A DNA stretch of 64,000 nt from Escherichia coli (GTDB lineage Bacteria; Pseudomonadota; Gammaproteobacteria; Enterobacterales; Enterobacteriaceae), in NCBI RefSeq assembly GCF_003334765.1, contig NZ_QOWT01000001.1; one strand, 5' to 3'. Shown piece by piece: positions 44,083 through 53,617 of this stretch; position 1 is the stretch's first letter; each line of letters opens with the position of its first letter. A model generated the notes under the pieces. The model was given only the letters and a program-made list of their open reading frames with translations, ran no database searches and was not told where the DNA came from. A program made the position numbers and the translations under genes.

Positions 44083-44143
44083 TTAAACAAAAACGCAGAA
44101 GGATAACCTTCTGCGTTACAGTTGCTGACAACGTGCGATTTAT

Positions 44144-44305
44144 CTTGCCGGATGCGGTGTTAACGACTCATCCGCGTTGACATGAAAAGACGCGTTAGGC
44201 GTCGTATCATGCAGCGCTTGTCGGATGCGGCGAGTGCCTTATCCGACCTACATCGATGATCCGCGTAGGCCTGATAAGCGTAGCGCTTCAGGCAATGCTG
44301 CATTT
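44144..44305. repeat. REP/BIME cluster (repetitive extragenic palindromes)
   Basis: Several REP units between convergent ydhP and sodB, e.g. GCCGGATGCGGTG…, GTCGGATGCGGCGAGTGCCTTATCCGACCTAC, GCCTGATAAGCGTAGCGCTTCAGGC. Confidence 0.8.
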
Positions 44306-45025: not shown

Positions 45026-45841
45026 TTAGCGAAGTGTTTTTGGGGTCATTACCCGACGAGCGCCAACATAGTGGCGCTGCCAGTAGTCTTCACTGAGAGA
45101 AGTGATTTGAATTTCCTGACCTGTGCGCGGTGACTGAATAAATTTGCCGTTGCCGACATACACGCCGACATGATCGGCTGTGCCGCGTCCCTGAGTACGG
45201 AAAAAGACCAGGTCGCCGTTTTTCAGTTCACTACGTTCGATTGGCGCTGCATCACGCAGGTGATACATTTCATTCGCCGTACGCGGAATACGAATTTTCA
45301 CCAAATCTTTATAAGCGTAATAAACCAGGCCGCTGCAATCAAAACCGGTACGCGGTGAGCTGCCACCCCAACGATATGGCTTACCAATTTGCTGCATCAG
45401 TTTATTCATTGCCACTTTCGTAGCTTTTTGCACCTTCGCTTTGTGCGCGTCGGCAAGAGTTCCTGACGCGGCATTTTTGACTTTCACACAATGCGATTTA
45501 TAGCCCTTACGTTTGGTACACTTTTCGGTAAAGCTGGCTGAGGCCGTTTTATTGACGGCGTGTTTGCTGCGAGTTTTGGCGTTTTTAGAAGCGGTAATGG
45601 AAGATTTTTTAACGGAAGAAGCGGTTTTGCTTTTGGTCGTACTTTTACTGGCGGCTTTTTTCGCTGTTTTCTGGGTCTTTTTGGTGGTTGCCGTGCTTTT
45701 CTTTTTATCTGCTTTTTTGGTGATATGAGTGGTAGCAGAACTCTCCCTGGCTTGCTTTGAAGCATGGGCCATAGGCGTTAAAGGCAGGGTGGTAAAAAGT
45801 AAAGCACAGAGCGTGATCGAAATACGGTTTATCCGCGCCAC
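45026..45841 (-). CDS. mepH: NlpC/P60-family peptidoglycan DD-endopeptidase
   Basis: 271-aa ORF with a signal peptide, a K/T/S-rich low-complexity linker and a C-terminal NlpC/P60 domain (…RWGGSSPRTGFDCSGLVYYAY…H…). Confidence 0.88.
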   Translation of the reverse strand: MARINRISITLCALLFTTLPLTPMAHASKQARESSATTHITKKADKKKSTATTKKTQKTAKKAASKSTTKSKTASSVKKSSITASKNAKTRSKHAVNKTASASFTEKCTKRKGYKSHCVKVKNAASGTLADAHKAKVQKATKVAMNKLMQQIGKPYRWGGSSPRTGFDCSGLVYYAYKDLVKIRIPRTANEMYHLRDAAPIERSELKNGDLVFFRTQGRGTADHVGVYVGNGKFIQSPRTGQEIQITSLSEDYWQRHYVGARRVMTPKTLR

Positions 45842-46174
45842 TGAGCGTCCCTCTGTTAAGGCAGGTCTATCATGCCTGCGTCTGATTTACAAAACTTGAT
45901 GATTCTAATGCATAGAAGAAGAGAAAGTTAATAGCTTTTATTGTTAAAAAATACGTTTCGTTGGCGAGCGCAAAAAAATGCAGCAGTGAAAGCTAAAAAT
46001 GGTTATAAATACGCCAGTTTGCCGGCATCAGAGAAGAAACGAATATTTGAAATGCAACAAATAGAGCAAAGGGATAAAATAGCAAAAGCGTGATGAAAAT
46101 GTTATTTTCCGATGCCGCACTGACCCGCTACAATGTCAGATTACTGCCGTAAAGAAGTTTGAGGAAGCAAGACA

Positions 46175-46522
46175 ATGAGCACCACTATCGAAAAAATCCA
46201 ACGCCAGATTGCTGAAAACCCGATCCTGCTGTACATGAAAGGTTCACCGAAACTGCCGAGCTGCGGTTTCTCTGCCCAGGCAGTCCAGGCGCTTGCCGCA
46301 TGTGGCGAACGTTTTGCCTATGTTGATATTCTGCAGAATCCGGACATTCGTGCGGAACTGCCGAAATATGCTAACTGGCCGACCTTCCCGCAACTGTGGG
46401 TTGACGGCGAGCTGGTCGGCGGTTGTGATATCGTGATCGAAATGTATCAGCGTGGCGAACTGCAGCAGCTGATCAAAGAAACTGCCGCTAAATACAAGTC
46501 TGAAGAGCCGGACGCGGAATAA
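46175..46522 (+). CDS. grxD: Monothiol glutaredoxin 4
   Basis: 115-aa ORF with the CGFS active site (…KGSPKLPSCGFSAQAV…). Confidence 0.95.
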   Translation: MSTTIEKIQRQIAENPILLYMKGSPKLPSCGFSAQAVQALAACGERFAYVDILQNPDIRAELPKYANWPTFPQLWVDGELVGGCDIVIEMYQRGELQQLIKETAAKYKSEEPDAE

Positions 46523-46536
46523 TCCGTCCTGCAATA

Positions 46537-46564
46537 CTGACGGATGCGAACGGGCATCCGTCAG
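46537..46564. terminator. Hairpin between convergent grxD and lhr (likely bidirectional terminator)
   Basis: CTGACGGATGC…GCATCCGTCAG, an 11-bp inverted repeat in the 50-bp convergent intergenic gap. Confidence 0.55.
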
Positions 46565-46572
46565 TCCTTTCT

Positions 46573-49500
46573 CTATCCCCAATCCAGCCCTTGTGGCGAA
46601 CTTGAAAATCCCGCCTCACGCAGCAGCGTAAACATCGGCGTTTGCCGGACCGGTAGATCATTCACTTCTGTTAGCGTAAAGCGCAGCCGTGGTTCGCGAC
46701 GCAGTGCGGTAGTCAGCGCGTGGAAAACCTCTGGGGCGAGTAATTCCTCTTTTTCCTGCCAGACCAGCATTTTTTTGCCACCTTGCGCCAGATAGAGTAA
46801 CAATTTGCCGCCAGAAACGACCACCAGCGCACCCGCCCGACGCGTTGGAACCAGCGTTGCCGGATGTGCAGGCCAGGGCAGAAGATTTCCCCACACATTA
46901 GCCGGATCGTTGGCAGAGAGCGCCACTGGTGTATAGTGGCGCGTTTGCGTGGCTTGTGTCGCCAGATCGCGCAATCGGTCAATAGTCAGACGTTCAGCGA
47001 ATTGCGCGCCACCCAGACCTTCTACAAAACGACCTCGCATAATTCGCCCGGAGTCTTCCATACTTCGACAAAGCGTTTGCATCGATGGAAACCCGCCAGG
47101 GATATTTTCGGCTATCACCGCCTGACGACTGATGATGCCGTAGCGGTCGAGCATATTTTCCGCCAGCGCCAGCATCCTTTCGGTATCGTTTAGTGGCTCC
47201 ACCTGCAATAACGACCAGCGTCCAGCCAGATTTGGTGTGTTGTAAGATACCCGCGGCGAGACGGGTTGCGCATAGACAGGACGTCCACGACGAGCCCGGT
47301 GACTGCGGCGAGTTGAGGTGCGTGCGTTGGAACTGCTGCGGGTGAGGGCGCGTAACGGTGCCCAAATGTCGCTGGTGATGACGCCTTGCCAGACCAGCGC
47401 CCATAACGCCTCTTGCAGGGCAGAGAGATCAACCGATTCGCCGATTTTGTCGCGTATCCGTTGGCTGATTTGTTGTGCAAACCAGGCTCCTCCGTCAGCC
47501 AGAACAGCGACTATCGCTTGTTGCAGCGCCGAACGATTCGCCTGATCCGCTTCGGCGGGAGTGAACGATTCTGCAGCATATTCCTGTAGATGCAGTGCCA
47601 CCAGGCCGTCATCTTCACCCAGTTTTTTTTGCCCCGACCAGATAACCGCACCGGTTGCCAGTAATTCATCGAGCATTTCTGACGAATAGTCGCGTACGCG
47701 GGCAGGCAGGATCTGGCTTTCCCAGAGTGAGGCGGGTAAACCGACTCCGGCAAGCTGTTCGATCACCCGCATCACGCCATCTACGCCCTCATAAACGCCT
47801 GGCGATGTTGAGGCAAAGAGCGCCGGGCTACCATCGGTGGCGGGTAATACGCCCTGACGTTCCAGCAGCAATCGCGCATAGGTCGTGGCTGCAACGGGAC
47901 GCGTCGCTTCTCTGGCGGCTTGCAGCGAGCGCAAACGCAGACGACGAAATACTTCATCGCTCACCCAGATGTCTTGTTGCAGATTCATCACCAGACCCTG
48001 TTCACGCAGTTGCTGAAGCTGCTCTTCGACAATGGCAATACCGAGACTAAACTCATGAGCCAGTTGTTCAGCCGTGACCAGAGCATGAGCCCGGAGATAG
48101 CGCAGAAAGAGGTCGCGAAGCGGGTAACTGACTCTATGTAAATAAATCTCTGGCAATGACTCTGGTAGTCGTACGCCGAGGGCATCACGCAGCCTGGCGG
48201 CATCATCCATACAGGCAAGACGCTCCTGTCCGCTAATCATCGCTGGGAAGATTCGTTTTACTGCAAGAAGATTTTCCAGATACGACGCAACCTCTTCACT
48301 GCTGCCTGTATGCCGTTGCGCCAGGTCTTCAACGGTCATTGGCCCCAGTTCGCGCAGCAGGTCGAACAATCCTTCTTCACCTTTCGCTCTTCTGCCAGGA
48401 GCCAGTCGTTGCAACTCTTCTTCCACCTGGCGAATGACCTGCGGGTCGAGTAATTCCCCCGGATCGACCTGTCCGAGTAGATTGCGCAGTAACTCGCTGT
48501 CCAGCGACAGTACGGATGCCCGGCGCTCTGCCAGCGGGGCGTCGCTCTGGTACATAAATTCCGCGACATAGCCGAACAATAAACTTGTGGCGAAAGGCGA
48601 GGGCGTAGTGGTCGTTACATCGGATATTTGAATTTCGCCACCGTTCAGGCGACGCATCAAACGTTCCAGTGCGGGAAGATCATAAACATCTTGCAGACAT
48701 TCGCGTAGGGTTTCGAGAATGACCGGAAAATCCGGATATCCCTGAGCGATTTCCAGCAACTGACTGGCGCGCAGCCGTTGTTGCCAAAGCGGGGTGCGAT
48801 GGCCCGGAGTGCGCCCCGGCATTAATAATGCCCGCGCGGCGCATTCGCGAAAACGGGCGGCGAAAAGTGCCGAGCTGCCTACCGCCTCGCGGACAATTTG
48901 CAGCAACTTTTCTGGTTCAAACAAAAAAATCGCGGCATCGGGCAATTTACCATCGGTGTCAGGAATACGTGCAACAATGCCGTCATCACTGGCGACCACC
49001 GACGCGTCAGCGCCCCATAGCGCATGTATTCGCCCGGCAATCGCCACCGCCCAGGGTTCATGCACCCGTCTTCCATAGGGAGAGTGCAAAATAATACGCC
49101 AGTCACCAATTTCATCACGGCACCGTTCGAGGACCAGATGGCGACTCCCCGGAACGATGCCCGTCGCGTTGCGCTGCTCCTCAATCAACCCCTGAATATT
49201 GGCGATCGTATTTTCTTCTGCCAGCCACGGGGGAATAGTCCCGGAAAAGAACGCGCCATCCGCCAGCAAATGAAGAAAATCGCCGATCATCTCGCCTAAT
49301 TCAGCCGGACGTCCGTTACCTTCACCACGCCAGAAGGGGAGCCGGGCAGAACGACCCGGAGCAGGAGTCACAATCACCTGATCGCGGGTGATTTGCTGGA
49401 TCCGCCATGAGGTAGCGCCGAGAGTGATAATATCGTTCACCCGCGACTCATATACCATCTCCTCATCCAGTTCACCCACCCGCCGCGAACCGGCCTTTTC

Positions 49501-51189
49501 TTCACCTTCGGGTAATAACACGCTATACATGCCACGATCCGGAATGGTGCCGCCGCTGGTAACCGCCAACAATTGAGCGCCAGGTCGGGCGGTCAATATC
49601 CCGGTCTCCCTGTTCCAGACCAGTTTGGGGCGAAAAGCAGAAAAATCGCCAGAGGGATAGCGCCCGGAAAGCATATCCAGCGTGGCGTCAAAAACACGTC
49701 TTGGCAGATCTTTCCACGGTGCGGCACGGCGTACGCGGGAGTACCATTCGTCTACCTGTAATGCATCCATCGCCGCGGCGGCAACGGTTTGCTGCGCAAG
49801 GACGTCGAGAGGATTATGCGGTGGTGTCAGGTTTTCCAGCCTGCCTGCGAACATACACTCTACAATGACTGCGGAATCGACTAAATCACGCCGGGTACGG
49901 GGGAAAAACAGCCCTTTAGATACACCGCCAACCTGATGTCCGGCGCGACCAATGCGTTGTAACCCACTGGCAACAGAAAGCGGCGTTGCCACCTGAATCA
50001 CCAGATCCACCGCGCCCATATCAATCCCCAGTTCAAGACTGGAGGTTGCGACCACGCAGCGTAATTCACCCGATTTCAGCGCCTGTTCGGTGATTGCTCG
50101 TTGTTCTTTAGAGACGGAGCCGTGGTGTGAGCGGGCAATAAAAACGTCGCTACTTTGTACACGGTTAGAGGTTGCGCCGGAGGTCGACTCGAAATGGGCC
50201 GCATCAACGGCGATAGACGGGGAACGCTGTAAGCGTGCGGCGTAAAGCTCATTTAATCGTGCCGTCAGTTTTTCCGCCAGCCCCCGCGAATTAGTAAAGA
50301 CAATGGTCGAGCGATGGCGCAACACTTCATCAAGGATACCCGTTTCAATATATGGCCAGATGGAGCCTTCCCGGCCGGCATGGCTGTCTTCGCCGGTGCC
50401 GCTGGCGACCGATGAGACATCATCCATATTGGCGACCGGTACGACAATTCGTATCTGCGGATGGCGCATTGCGGGCGGGTTGACTACCGTAACCGGGCGA
50501 TCGCCACCAAGAAATGCTGCCACATCGCTGGCTGAGCGCACAGTGGCAGAAAGGCCAATTCGCTGTGCTGAGGTGTGGAGCAGCGCATCGAGCCGCTCCA
50601 GACTTAACGCCAGATGCGCACCACGTTTACTGCCCGCTACCGCGTGGACTTCATCAATAATTACCGTTTCGACGCCGCGTAGCGTTTCGCGCGCGCGGGA
50701 GGTCAGCATCAGATAGAGTGATTCGGGTGTGGTGATCAGAATATCCGGCGGATTACGGGTGAGTTTGCTGCGTTCCTGTGCAGGCGTATCGCCAGTACGG
50801 ATCCCTACGCGAAGATTGACTTCCGTTTCGCCGCGCCGCCGCCGTTCATCGGCAATACCCTTCAACGGGATCTGCAAGTTGCGCTGAACGTCGGTGCCCA
50901 GGGCTTTTATCGGTGAAATATAGAGGATGCGTGAGGTTTTACGCTTATGCGCCTCGCGGGTATCTTCGCCGCCTTCGCGGAAGAGCCGATCGAGGGCGTA
51001 GAGAAATGCTGCCAGCGTTTTCCCGGAGCCGGTCGGTGCAATCACCAGCGCATGTTCGCTTCGCGCCGCCACATGCCAGGTTTGCGGCTGGACAGCGGTC
51101 GGCTGTTTAAAGGCGCGAAGAAACCAGTCGCGGGTCGCCGGTGAAAACACGTCCGGCAGGAGCGATGAAGGGTCTGGATTATCTGCCAT
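46573..51189 (-). CDS. lhr: Lhr, large ATP-dependent superfamily-2 helicase
   Basis: 1538-aa ORF with helicase motifs (Walker A APTGSGKT, DEVH box, helicase C) and a long C-terminal extension. Confidence 0.93.
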   Translation of the reverse strand: MADNPDPSSLLPDVFSPATRDWFLRAFKQPTAVQPQTWHVAARSEHALVIAPTGSGKTLAAFLYALDRLFREGGEDTREAHKRKTSRILYISPIKALGTDVQRNLQIPLKGIADERRRRGETEVNLRVGIRTGDTPAQERSKLTRNPPDILITTPESLYLMLTSRARETLRGVETVIIDEVHAVAGSKRGAHLALSLERLDALLHTSAQRIGLSATVRSASDVAAFLGGDRPVTVVNPPAMRHPQIRIVVPVANMDDVSSVASGTGEDSHAGREGSIWPYIETGILDEVLRHRSTIVFTNSRGLAEKLTARLNELYAARLQRSPSIAVDAAHFESTSGATSNRVQSSDVFIARSHHGSVSKEQRAITEQALKSGELRCVVATSSLELGIDMGAVDLVIQVATPLSVASGLQRIGRAGHQVGGVSKGLFFPRTRRDLVDSAVIVECMFAGRLENLTPPHNPLDVLAQQTVAAAAMDALQVDEWYSRVRRAAPWKDLPRRVFDATLDMLSGRYPSGDFSAFRPKLVWNRETGILTARPGAQLLAVTSGGTIPDRGMYSVLLPEGEEKAGSRRVGELDEEMVYESRVNDIITLGATSWRIQQITRDQVIVTPAPGRSARLPFWRGEGNGRPAELGEMIGDFLHLLADGAFFSGTIPPWLAEENTIANIQGLIEEQRNATGIVPGSRHLVLERCRDEIGDWRIILHSPYGRRVHEPWAVAIAGRIHALWGADASVVASDDGIVARIPDTDGKLPDAAIFLFEPEKLLQIVREAVGSSALFAARFRECAARALLMPGRTPGHRTPLWQQRLRASQLLEIAQGYPDFPVILETLRECLQDVYDLPALERLMRRLNGGEIQISDVTTTTPSPFATSLLFGYVAEFMYQSDAPLAERRASVLSLDSELLRNLLGQVDPGELLDPQVIRQVEEELQRLAPGRRAKGEEGLFDLLRELGPMTVEDLAQRHTGSSEEVASYLENLLAVKRIFPAMISGQERLACMDDAARLRDALGVRLPESLPEIYLHRVSYPLRDLFLRYLRAHALVTAEQLAHEFSLGIAIVEEQLQQLREQGLVMNLQQDIWVSDEVFRRLRLRSLQAAREATRPVAATTYARLLLERQGVLPATDGSPALFASTSPGVYEGVDGVMRVIEQLAGVGLPASLWESQILPARVRDYSSEMLDELLATGAVIWSGQKKLGEDDGLVALHLQEYAAESFTPAEADQANRSALQQAIVAVLADGGAWFAQQISQRIRDKIGESVDLSALQEALWALVWQGVITSDIWAPLRALTRSSSNARTSTRRSHRARRGRPVYAQPVSPRVSYNTPNLAGRWSLLQVEPLNDTERMLALAENMLDRYGIISRQAVIAENIPGGFPSMQTLCRSMEDSGRIMRGRFVEGLGGAQFAERLTIDRLRDLATQATQTRHYTPVALSANDPANVWGNLLPWPAHPATLVPTRRAGALVVVSGGKLLLYLAQGGKKMLVWQEKEELLAPEVFHALTTALRREPRLRFTLTEVNDLPVRQTPMFTLLREAGFSSSPQGLDWG

Positions 51190-51281
51190 TAACGCTATTC
51201 CCCGTGAATATCATGCAGGATGCGTGGAATAGCCTCACTATAGATGCCTGAATCATTGCATGTCATCAGGCATCGACTCGA

Positions 51282-51929
51282 TTACACCTCTTCGGCGGCA
51301 GATAGCGGCCAGCCTCCCAGACGTTTCCAGCGGTTGACGATTTCACAAAACAGCACAGCAGTGCGTTCGGTGTCGTACAGCGCGGAGTGCGCCTGGGTGC
51401 TGTCGAAGTCCATGCCAGCGGTCTGGCAAGCCTTTGACAATACGGTTTGTCCGAGTGCCAGCCCGGCCAGTGCAGCAGTGTCAAAAGTGGCGAAAGGGTG
51501 GAACGGGTTACGTTTCAGTGAGGCGCGTTCTGCGGCGGCCATCATAAAGCTGTGATCAAAATTGGCATTGTGCGCCACCATAATGGCGCGGTTACAGCCG
51601 CTCGCTTTAATACCTTTACGTACAACTTTAAAAATTTCGTGCAGCGCCTCGTATTCGCTGACCGCGCCGCGATCGGGATCGTTCGGGTCAATGCCGTTGA
51701 AGGCGAGGGCTTCTGGTTGCAAATTTGCGCCGACAAATGGTTCGACGTGGAAATGTAATGTGGTGTCCGGCATCAGCCAGCCTTGTTCATCCATTTTCAG
51801 GGTGATGGCGGCAATCTCAAGCAGCGCATCGGTTTTGGCGTTAAATCCGGCTGTTTCAACATCGATCACAACAGGATAAAAACCACGAAAACGGTCGCAC
51901 AGACCGGTAAGTTGAGCGTTATCGGACAT
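51282..51929 (-). CDS. rnt: Ribonuclease T (DEDDh 3'-5' exoribonuclease)
   Basis: 215-aa [44 protein letters not shown]… with the DEDD motif. Confidence 0.95.
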
Positions 51930-52031
51930 CTGATTCTCTTAATACGGATAAATTGCAGCGCGCATTATGACAAATATTACTTGTCGATGCAGTAAAGATG
52001 CGGGCGCGATGAGTTCACGCCCGGCAGGAGA

Positions 52032-52439
52032 TTAGTTGCCCAGACCGCGACCGGCGTCTTTCTCTTCGATTAACTCAATTTTGTAACCGTCCGGATCTTC
52101 CACAAACGCGATAACCGTAGTACCGCCTTTTACCGGACCCGCTTCACGGGTCACGTTACCCCCGTTTTGACGGATTTTTTCGCACGCTTCAGCGGCGTTA
52201 TCTACGCTAAGCGCGATGTGACCATAAGCAGTGCCGAGTTCGTATTTATCCACGCCCCAGTTGTAGGTCAGTTCAATCACCGCTTCTTCGGTTTCCGGGC
52301 CGTAGCCAACAAACGCCAGTGAGTATTTGTATTCCGGGTTTTCGCTGGTACGCAGCAGTTTCATGCCCAGCACTTTGGTATAAAAATCGATGGAGCGTTG
52401 CAAATCGCCAACGCGCAGCATGGTATGAAGAAGACGCAT
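52032..52439 (-). CDS. gloA: Glyoxalase I (lactoylglutathione lyase)
   Basis: 135-aa [50 protein letters not shown]…. Confidence 0.95.
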
Positions 52440-52519
52440 CTTTTTATCCTCAAAATGGCTAACAGATTCAAAATGTTGTTTTAGTATAGCGGCGGCTTTA
52501 CGCCGCTCGCAATGTTGGA

Positions 52520-53617
52520 TTACAACGTCGGGTAATCGGTATAGCCTTCCGCGCCGCCACCGTAGAAACTTTCGGCACGCTGTGGGTTAAGCTCAGCTTT
52601 GCGCTGCAAGCGGGCGACCAGATCCGGGTTCGCAATCCAGTCACGACCAAATGCCACCGCATCAATTAACCCTTTGCCGATCAGCGTTTCAGCTTTTTCT
52701 ACTGTGTATGCACCTGCGCCGATAATCGGACCGTGGAAACGGGCGCGTACTTTTTCGCGGAACGCATCAGTATACGGTTCACCCCCCGCCCAATCTGGTT
52801 CTGACATATGCAGATAAGCAATGCCGCGTTTACCCAGTTGTTCAATCAGATACAGTGCATCGGCTTCTTCATTCGGGCCGTTATCTGTGTTCTGGAAAGT
52901 ACCGATTGGTGAAACGCGAATGCCAATGCGATCGGCACCCCATTCTTCAATCCCGGCATCGACCACTTCCAGTACCAAACGTGCGCGATTTTCCACGCTG
53001 CCGCCGTACTGATCGGTACGATGGTTTGAAGAAGGAGAAAGGAACTGATGCAGCAAATAACCGTGAGCAGAGTGGAGCTCTACCAGATCAAAACCGGCTT
53101 CACGCGCGTTAGCAATGGCCTGACGGAAATCATTGACGATACCTGGAATCTCTTCCAGTTCAAGCGCACGCGGCATGGATGTTTCAACACGGATCGCCTG
53201 ACCATTTTCATCGCGCAGAGAAGTACGTGTTCCCGCGCTAAGTGCTGAAGGCGCTACCGGTGCCTGACCGCCAGGTTGCAGGCTGGCGTGAGAAATGCGT
53301 CCGGTGTGCCACAGCTGCACGGCCATATGACCATTTTCAGCATGAACGCCAGCGGTGATTTTTTTCCATGCGGCAATTTGCTCCGGACTATGGATGCCAG
53401 GCGCACCTGCATATCCTTTTGCCTGGGCAGAAATTTGCGTGGCTTCACTAATAATCAAACCGGCACTGGCACGTTGGCGATAGTATTCCGCCATCAACGG
53501 GGTAGGAATGTCACCCGGTTCAATACTGCGCAGACGCGTCAGCGGTGCCATAAAAATACGGTTTGCCGCCGTGATCGCGCCCACTTTCAGTGGGGAATAC
53601 AGTTTTTCAGATGACAT
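52520..53617 (-). CDS. nemA: N-ethylmaleimide reductase (Old Yellow Enzyme family, FMN)
   Basis: 365-aa [31 protein letters not shown]…, OYE-like. Confidence 0.93.

Follow-up and report, generated by a model that had tools for sequence, protein, structure and literature searches.

The closest described counterpart of the locus considered here is the rnt-lhr unit of Escherichia coli K-12, in which the gene for ribonuclease T (RNase T) is followed by the gene for the large helicase Lhr. A passage of PMC8301817, citing Reuven et al. 1995, states that the two genes are co-transcribed. For the Lhr proteins of E. coli and Mycobacterium smegmatis, ATP-dependent 3'-5' translocation, uracil-DNA glycosylase (UDG) activity and tetramer formation have been reported in the literature. 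In E. coli, the glycosylase needs residue Asp1536 and is separable from the helicase; deletion of lhr makes cells sensitive to H2O2 and mildly sensitive to azidothymidine (AZT), with the response to mitomycin C unaffected (Buckley et al. 2023, PMC10953399). Here, we describe a stretch of 64,000 nucleotides of E. coli DNA (RefSeq assembly GCF_003334765.1, contig NZ_QOWT01000001.1), hereafter called the window, that carries this very locus: the annotated K-12 rnt-lhr transcription unit (b1652-b1653). The order nemR-nemA-gloA-rnt-lhr, with grxD convergent, is the same as in K-12, and we found no substantive difference between the two.

Overall, we favour, at a probability of roughly 70%, a picture in which rnt and lhr form a read-through operon, lhr was inserted behind rnt, the first of two hairpins in the rnt-lhr spacer (HP1) does not terminate transcription, and the output of lhr is limited by a weak translation start. 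The rnt promoter, lying just past the gloA terminator, would drive both genes, and transcription would continue through the 92-bp spacer into lhr because the spacer holds no terminator. Inserted between rnt and an ancestral terminator, lhr would therefore be without a promoter of its own and dependent on that of rnt; a horizontally acquired gene would thus be expressed by read-through from rnt. HP1 probably forms in the mRNA and would be at most a modest RNA-level element, for example an obstacle to 3' exonucleases or a fold that ribosomes encounter as they terminate, and not a transcriptional switch. A weak ribosome-binding site (RBS), partly sequestered in the second hairpin (HP2), would be the main cause of low Lhr output. 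As for the products, RNase T is the housekeeping 3'-5' exonuclease, and Lhr joins a 3'-5' single-stranded DNA translocase/helicase to a C-terminal domain of the winged-helix/AlkZ-like type, which excises uracil from DNA.

The rnt-lhr transcription unit

The elements on which the operon reading is built are as follows, in window coordinates; subtracting a window coordinate from 1780276 gives the MG1655 coordinate.

51957..51972, minus strand: rnt promoter core, with the transcription start site (TSS) at 51957 (Kim et al. 2012) and an extended -10, TGTCATAAT, at 51972-51964 (read from the sequence)
51282..51929, minus strand: rnt, encoding RNase T (215 aa), a DEDDh 3'-5' exonuclease (open reading frame (ORF) listing, TIGR01298, RefSeq annotation)
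51190..51281, minus strand: rnt-lhr intercistronic spacer, 92 bp (ORF coordinates)
46573..51189, minus strand: lhr, 1538 aa (ORF listing, Pfam, NF007284, PDB 7LHL and 5V9X, PMC10953399)
52001..52023, minus strand: gloA intrinsic terminator, CGGGCGTGAACTCATCGCGCCCG then CATCTTTACT (terminator scan; Term-seq 3' end at MG1655 1728279 (+), window 51997)
46536..46565, plus strand: grxD terminator, a 12-bp hairpin between convergent lhr and grxD (scan, fold, Term-seq)

Both genes are firmly identified. RNase T scores 382.9 bits with the equivalog model TIGR01298, for which the cut-off is 246.2, and Lhr is assigned by the equivalog model NF007284, which covers residues 1-1538 (3412.8 bits against a cut-off of 1496). 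The rnt/lhr junction is matched by 5426 complete E. coli genomes, where RefSeq annotates rnt and lhr, and comparison with MG1655 reveals one differing base in 8.3 kb and provides the gene names b1652 (rnt) and b1653 (lhr). An RNase T gene, a 92-bp spacer and a gene for a 1538-aa superfamily 2 (SF2) helicase, as described in an initial annotation of this DNA, agree with the ORF listing.

The published transcript maps place the start of the unit upstream of rnt. The TSS table of Kim et al. 2012 has entries for gloA, then rnt (1726343 in v2 coordinates), then grxD, and this genome-wide, thresholded data set contains no TSS for lhr. The rnt TSS corresponds to 1728319 in v3 coordinates, that is, to position 51957 of the window, 28 nt before the rnt ATG; no good -35 is found upstream of the extended -10. 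The gloA terminator abuts this promoter and forms the upstream boundary of the unit. At the other end, the grxD terminator folds with -22.7 kcal/mol (z -5.85), and its Term-seq end at MG1655 1733706/7 (-) falls at 46569-46570 on the plus strand of the window. Between the ends at 1728279 (+) and 1733706/7 (-), two of the Term-seq lists that Adams et al. 2021 give sorted by coordinate hold no entry, and coordinates starting with 17289, 17290 or 17291 are absent from all four supplementary files of that work. The terminator scan of the rnt-lhr spacer was negative, though the same scan finds the gloA and grxD terminators.

Thus, rnt and lhr lie on one strand with a short spacer and no terminator between them, and the sole listed TSS is upstream of rnt. 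As to the operon mapping proposed with the initial annotation, the published statement cited above and one TSS upstream of rnt with none for lhr speak for co-transcription. It is a two-gene operon already known since the 1990s.

A separate observation concerns the opposite strand at the 3' end of lhr. In Adams et al. 2021, the second supplementary table gives a candidate 3' end at about 46790 on the plus strand (MG1655 1733486, -), antisense within the 3' region of lhr and downstream of grxD. Such an end would mean that transcripts pass the grxD terminator and run on antisense to lhr.

Proposed insertion of lhr, and its loss in some strains

The genes surrounding the unit, which serve as landmarks in other genomes, are located as follows.

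54253-53654, minus strand: nemR, first in the minus-strand gene order
53617-52520, minus strand: nemA, after nemR
52439-52032, minus strand: gloA, after nemA and before rnt
46175-46522, plus strand: grxD, convergent with lhr

When the N-terminal 350 aa of Lhr were used in a scan of one genome per species, rnt-lhr adjacency was confined, among the matches listed, to E. coli, E. albertii and Citrobacter amalonaticus. The arrangement nemR-nemA-gloA-rnt / grxD-mepH is intact, with no lhr, in Salmonella enterica (L082) and in four enteric loci (L083, L085, L091 and L092) whose RNase T shares 83-89% identity with that of E. coli. Likewise, KPN_01991 (rnt) and KPN_01992 (grxD) of K. pneumoniae are consecutive, without lhr, in the ortholog table of Kim et al. 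2012. In three of these loci, rnt and grxD are only 28-68 bp apart, and the gap holds a bidirectional terminator, AAAAAGCGACC…GGTCGCTTTTT, between the convergent genes (spacers read):

L082, 6658-6725: rnt/grxD spacer with bidirectional terminator
L083, 6652-6679: rnt/grxD spacer with bidirectional terminator
L085, 6649-6695: rnt/grxD spacer with bidirectional terminator

Elsewhere, lhr is found in other surroundings. In Entomohabitans teleogrylli (L003, 809-3155), the gene is 73% identical and lies not beside rnt, being located downstream of genes for a major facilitator superfamily (MFS) metabolite/H+ symporter and a class A beta-lactamase. In Stenotrophomonas sp. 169 (L098, 10998-13408), lhr is again not by rnt; the genes beside it encode a Pur_DNA_glyco glycosylase, a DUF72 protein and a glycosylase of the Fapy/H2TH (Nei/Fpg-like) kind. 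Identities of the Lhr N-terminus among enteric matches range from 73 to 94%, with Entomohabitans and Citrobacter at 73-74%. Beyond the enterics, the best N-terminal matches listed include at least 76 Actinobacteria (51-61% identity), and the best matches of the C-terminal domain are those of Stenotrophomonas (53%), followed by Pseudoclavibacter, Actinomycetaceae, Cellulomonas, Rothia and Bowdeniella (39-46%). E. coli and C. amalonaticus share 90-97% identity in the proteins that flank the unit but only 74% in the Lhr N-terminus. The rnt-lhr spacer of C. amalonaticus is 146 bp long and unrelated to that of E. coli, and the spacer is not alignable outside Escherichia. C. amalonaticus also has a non-homologous, REP-like (repetitive extragenic palindromic) hairpin 6 nt past the rnt stop codon.

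From such a distribution, we infer that a narrow lineage gained lhr by insertion between rnt and the rnt/grxD terminator of its ancestors; any direction or number of transfers deduced from these comparisons is tentative. The G+C content of lhr is 0.569 against 0.501 for the window, while its third-position G+C (GC3) of 0.558 equals the window median. With GC3 so ordinary, the G+C excess sits in codon positions 1 and 2, i.e., in amino-acid composition, and any transfer of lhr should be old. The composition of the gene would thus fit an old, ameliorated acquisition.

Within E. coli, lhr has also been lost. Of the 5426 complete genomes, 1042 lack a match to a 1.5-kb probe from the interior of lhr, and all but two of these (1040) share one junction, which corresponds to a single deletion found in about 19% of complete genomes:

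46701..51088, no strand: deleted interval, 4,388 bp (junctions in L086-L090 and L096; edges ambiguous within microhomology)

The junction lies at imperfect 10-bp microhomology/repeats, GCCGCAAACC / GTCGCGAACC. What remains is a 229-nt remnant of lhr, annotated by RefSeq as 'endonuclease' and 'ATP-dependent helicase' pseudogene fragments, and the spacer, HP1 and HP2 persist in the deleted strains. Hence, lhr is dispensable within E. coli, and natural lhr-null lineages exist that can be compared for peroxide and AZT sensitivity.

These findings bear on the suggestion, made in the initial annotation, that pairing with an exoribonuclease gene hints at a nucleic-acid repair or processing role for Lhr. 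Lhr does act in repair (PMC10953399), but its pairing with rnt is weak evidence for function. The long bLhr-HTH class of Lhr proteins, to which we return below, has no conserved neighbourhood (Hajj et al. 2021, PMC8301817), and on the distribution given above, rnt-lhr does not behave as a conserved functional gene pair. A similar genomic-context argument for RNase T and Lhr appears in PMC7437997; in our opinion, the adjacency of rnt and lhr should not serve as guilt-by-association evidence for a partnership of their products. The insertion and the shared deletion are modestly informative for studying the purpose of Lhr in E. coli. The insertion context, the deletion shared by 19% of complete E. 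coli genomes and an SOS-like site in C. amalonaticus (see below) were not found stated in the literature examined, and we regard them as minor points.

Hairpins in the rnt-lhr spacer

Three elements of the spacer have to be considered.

51243..51274, minus strand: HP1, GATGCCTGA / TCAGGCATC, 9-bp stem with a 14-nt loop (inverted-repeat search, fold)
51194..51233, minus strand: HP2, GCTATTCC / GGAATAGC, 8-bp stem with a 24-nt loop (inverted-repeat search, fold)
51237..51266, minus strand: sigma-70-like match, ATGACA, 18-nt spacer, TATAGT, 10/12 (consensus scan), not supported as a working promoter

HP1 is the inverted repeat that the initial annotation had noticed at about 51245-51276, a position off by 2 nt, and had suggested could attenuate read-through into lhr. 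The repeat itself is exact: GATGCCTGA at 51243-51251 and TCAGGCATC at 51266-51274 form a perfect 9-bp stem with five G-C pairs out of nine, beginning 7 nt past the rnt stop codon on the transcribed strand. By simple arithmetic (about 92 x 18 / 4^9), 0.006 perfect 9-bp repeats with a 3-20 nt loop are expected by chance per 92 bp; in the whole window there are about 25 distinct repeats of this kind against some 4.4 expected, several of them being terminators. Folded alone as minus-strand RNA, HP1 reaches -14.6 kcal/mol (z = -2.73; 3 of 200 shuffles were equally good), and the 116-nt spacer context shows no unusual structure overall (z = -0.58). The stem is followed by UAUAGUGAGG (UAUAGUGAGGCU directly after it), without a U tract. 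An Rfam scan of 45800-52600 at an expect value (E) <= 1 returned no match. Thus, of what had been expected of this hairpin, the folding holds, and no sign of termination accompanies it in either the scan or the Term-seq lists.

HP2 lies closer to lhr, its arms GCTATTCC (51226-51233) and GGAATAGC (51194-51201) ending 5 nt before the lhr ATG. By itself it is not significant (-13.6 kcal/mol, z = -1.68). The sole Shine-Dalgarno-like sequence before the lhr ATG, the purine run GGGGAA located 10 nt from it, falls inside the 3' arm of HP2, and HP2 may in this way partly occlude a weak lhr RBS. The HP2 loop contains a perfect 12-nt palindrome, ATCATGCATGAT, in most E. coli and in E. albertii; K-12 and the spacer studied here carry a minority variant, ATCCTGCATGAT. 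As a further observation, the string CATGCA(A)TGAT occurs in both loops (HP2 loop, 51202-51225; HP1 loop, 51252-51265).

Within E. coli, a 54-nt query across HP1 was found in 5426 of 5426 genomes and was identical in 4704. We aligned ten Escherichia spacers, namely, those of K-12, a divergent 'E. coli', E. albertii and seven diverse E. coli. Among the 12 variable sites, none is in the 18 arm positions of HP1 and one is in an HP2 arm (a C to T change, still G.U-compatible), the rest being in loops and linkers. Arms therefore received 1 of 12 substitutions against 37% expected, with p about 0.03 on an assumption of independent sites that does not hold. One lineage carries a T-to-A change beside the 3' arm of HP1 that gives a 10-bp stem (-16.8 kcal/mol), and one strain has a 10-nt duplication after the HP1 stem. 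Such a pattern hints that the stems may be under constraint.

The alternative that survives best is that HP1 and HP2 are functionless, either leftovers of the insertion junction or a decayed REP or terminator, with their apparent conservation coming from the similarity of Escherichia genomes. The spacer is unalignable outside Escherichia and differs in C. amalonaticus; it is unchanged in strains without lhr; the argument for constraint is built on 12 variable sites, several of them shared by descent; and the fold of the whole spacer is unremarkable. What speaks against a relic is that substitutions avoid the arms, that the lineage-specific change lengthens the HP1 stem, and that C. amalonaticus has a hairpin at the same position. 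We consider this reading possible, though clearly the lesser one.

Somewhat less probable, and in our view unlikely, is a REP-like role, in which HP1 would hinder terminating ribosomes and/or block 3' exonucleases, tuning RNase T synthesis or the stability of the rnt message and not lhr. A passage of PMC12306157 gives, after Liang et al. 2015, a stop-codon distance below 16 nt as the criterion for translational down-regulation by REPs, and HP1 lies within that distance. HP1 also shares GCCTGATG … TCAGGC with Z-type REPs, for instance with the copy at 44253-44290, its arms are conserved while its loop varies, and C. amalonaticus carries the REP-like hairpin mentioned above. Against this stands the behaviour of HP1 as a sequence: each of the 5426 E. 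coli genomes contains it at one place only (blastn, word size 11, E <= 10, a search insensitive below about 20 nt). Its best local score against the published REP consensus is 16 (an 8-mer), reached by 100 of 2000 shuffles and by 9% of genomic 46-mers, whereas genuine REPs in the window, taken as a positive control, score 33-38, more than twice as much. The Adams 2021 lists show no stable 3' end at HP1, and the RepRanger supplements have no entry for the rnt-lhr locus. Being single-copy, with a consensus score at background, HP1 was rejected as a REP proper. Both the REP-like and the relic readings overlap the part of our favoured picture that is left vague, namely, what HP1 does in the mRNA. 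The window does contain REPs of its own: a cluster with Y-type and Z1-type copies, a BIME-like (bacterial interspersed mosaic element) array, lies between sodB and ydhP at 44138-44290.

That HP1 acts as a transcriptional attenuator or weak terminator reducing read-through from rnt to lhr, the role proposed for it initially, now appears very improbable. Its stability and non-random character, its position separating a housekeeping gene from one for which low expression is expected, the conserved arms and the non-homologous hairpin at the same position in C. amalonaticus would all suit an attenuator. However, the 14-nt loop, the missing U tract, the negative terminator scan, the Term-seq tables with no 3' end listed at HP1 and the reported co-transcription of rnt and lhr do not, and HP1 should not be annotated as one.

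Equally slim are the chances that the palindromes are DNA-level sites, with HP1 as the operator of a dimeric regulator around an internal promoter (ATGACA-18-TATAGT) that would make lhr stress-inducible independently of rnt. This reading draws on the 10/12 promoter-like match, whose -35 hexamer falls in the HP1 loop, on HP1 being a perfect palindrome centred on that -35, on the 12-nt palindrome in the HP2 loop of most strains, and on the damage-induced lhr of mycobacteria described in PMC9841417. It can further point to CACTGTATATTTGACCAGTA, located upstream of lhr in C. amalonaticus (L004, 3879-3898), which fits 15/20 positions of the SOS-box consensus, with CTG-N10-CAG intact, and which suggests that lhr may be under LexA control in that organism. 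On the other side, Kim et al. 2012 list no lhr TSS, and promoter-like matches of this quality are common (7 in 6.3 kb, where 3.9 are expected). CTG-N10-CAG is absent from the E. coli spacer, no site in the 64-kb window matches the SOS consensus at 15/20 positions or more, and the 12-nt palindrome ATCATGCATGAT is not enriched within the window. No known regulator motif was recognised either: by-eye comparison of the spacer with OxyR, NsrR, Fur, NemR and PurR motifs revealed no convincing match. The broader idea that HP1 and HP2 together make up a lineage-specific cis-regulatory module, acting as RNA or as an operator combined with an internal promoter and giving the acquired lhr a stress response independent of rnt, seems hardly more credible to us, even with the SOS-box-like site of C. 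amalonaticus as its would-be parallel.

Returning to the read-through operon with a non-terminating HP1, we are aware of several points that weigh against it. Since the TSS and Term-seq tables list only entries above a threshold and expression of rnt is weak, they could miss a weak TSS inside the unit or a partial 3' end; the 3'-end scores in Adams 2021 are about 1,000-2,600 for gloA against several hundred thousand for grxD. The conserved arms (p of about 0.03, from few and non-independent changes) suggest a function that this picture leaves vague, and occlusion of the weak RBS is deduced from the nucleotide sequence alone. A DNA-level site would also fit the promoter-like hexamers over HP1 and the palindromes. 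Finally, the GC3 of lhr is typical for the window and offers no independent support for foreign origin or recent transfer.

Lhr and described systems

The initial annotation regarded the C-terminal two-thirds of Lhr as having no known function. This view is outdated, given the Pfam families of the region, a homologous structure and the published UDG activity with its Asp1536. The Lhr core comprises residues 1-869 (window 48583-51189) and the C-terminal domain residues 870-1538 (window 46573-48582). The core carries the SF2 motifs I, II (DExH), III and VI as GSGKT54, DEVH179, SAT214 and QRIGR411, respectively, and matches the Pfam families DEAD (1.8e-30), Helicase_C (6.3e-13), WH_Lhr (2.1e-47) and DEAD_assoc, i.e., Domain 4 (6e-62). 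The domain search suggested for the C-terminal region retrieved WH2_Lhr (2.8e-19), WH3_Lhr (1.4e-26) and WH4_Lhr (6.6e-28), together with a weak AlkZ-like match (HTH_42, 9.2e-4); AlkZ-like and SelB-like folds in this region had already been noted by Buckley et al. 2020 (PMC7437997). The structure of full-length M. smegmatis Lhr (7LHL, a cryogenic electron microscopy/crystal entry) aligns with residues 15-1479 of E. coli Lhr, with residues 870-1479 matching its residues 850-1443 at E 5e-120, and PDB 5V9X aligns with the core. The protein ends in GLD1536WG, so that Asp1536 is present. Approximately 6,600 cluster representatives have the C-terminal domain in common (E <= 0.001). With its core, winged helix, Domain 4 and C-terminal domain, Lhr belongs to the long bLhr-HTH class. 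Hence, the main attributes of the locus are already in print: the operon since the 1990s, the structure of the C-terminal domain since 2021 and the glycosylase activity since 2023.

Set beside intrinsic terminators and attenuators, HP1 is likewise a stable stem of mixed composition, intergenic and 3' of a stop codon. Such terminators have a short loop (about 3-8 nt), a U tract and a 3' end, whereas HP1 has none of these, although weak sub-threshold ends are possible. In relatives without lhr, the corresponding place is taken by a textbook bidirectional terminator, in contrast to HP1. Like REP and BIME elements, HP1 is palindromic and extragenic and has a stop codon within 15 nt, and it has the GCCTGATG head and TCAGGC tail of Z-type REPs; it differs from such elements in being single-copy, in lacking the G+C-rich inner stem and the CTAC tail, and in its background-level alignment score.

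As a gene pair, rnt-lhr can be compared with Lhr-Core-MPE of the Pseudomonas putida type, where an Lhr-type helicase also stands beside a nuclease. That pairing is kept in 276 of 319 genomes and belongs to the short bLhr class, unlike the long bLhr-HTH protein of E. coli (PMC8301817).

Another close counterpart is M. smegmatis Lhr, which has the same SF2 core, winged helix and Domain 4, a C-terminal domain of about 670 aa and a role in DNA repair. The two systems differ in their partner genes: according to a passage of PMC9841417, nei2 lies downstream of lhr in M. smegmatis, whereas the E. coli partner rnt lies upstream. The lhr neighbourhood of Stenotrophomonas sp. 169, with its glycosylase genes, recalls the mycobacterial lhr-nei2 operon described there. 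They differ also in physiology: mycobacterial lhr is damage-induced and protects against crosslinkers, while the E. coli lhr mutant is sensitive to peroxide and AZT and not to mitomycin (PMC10953399).

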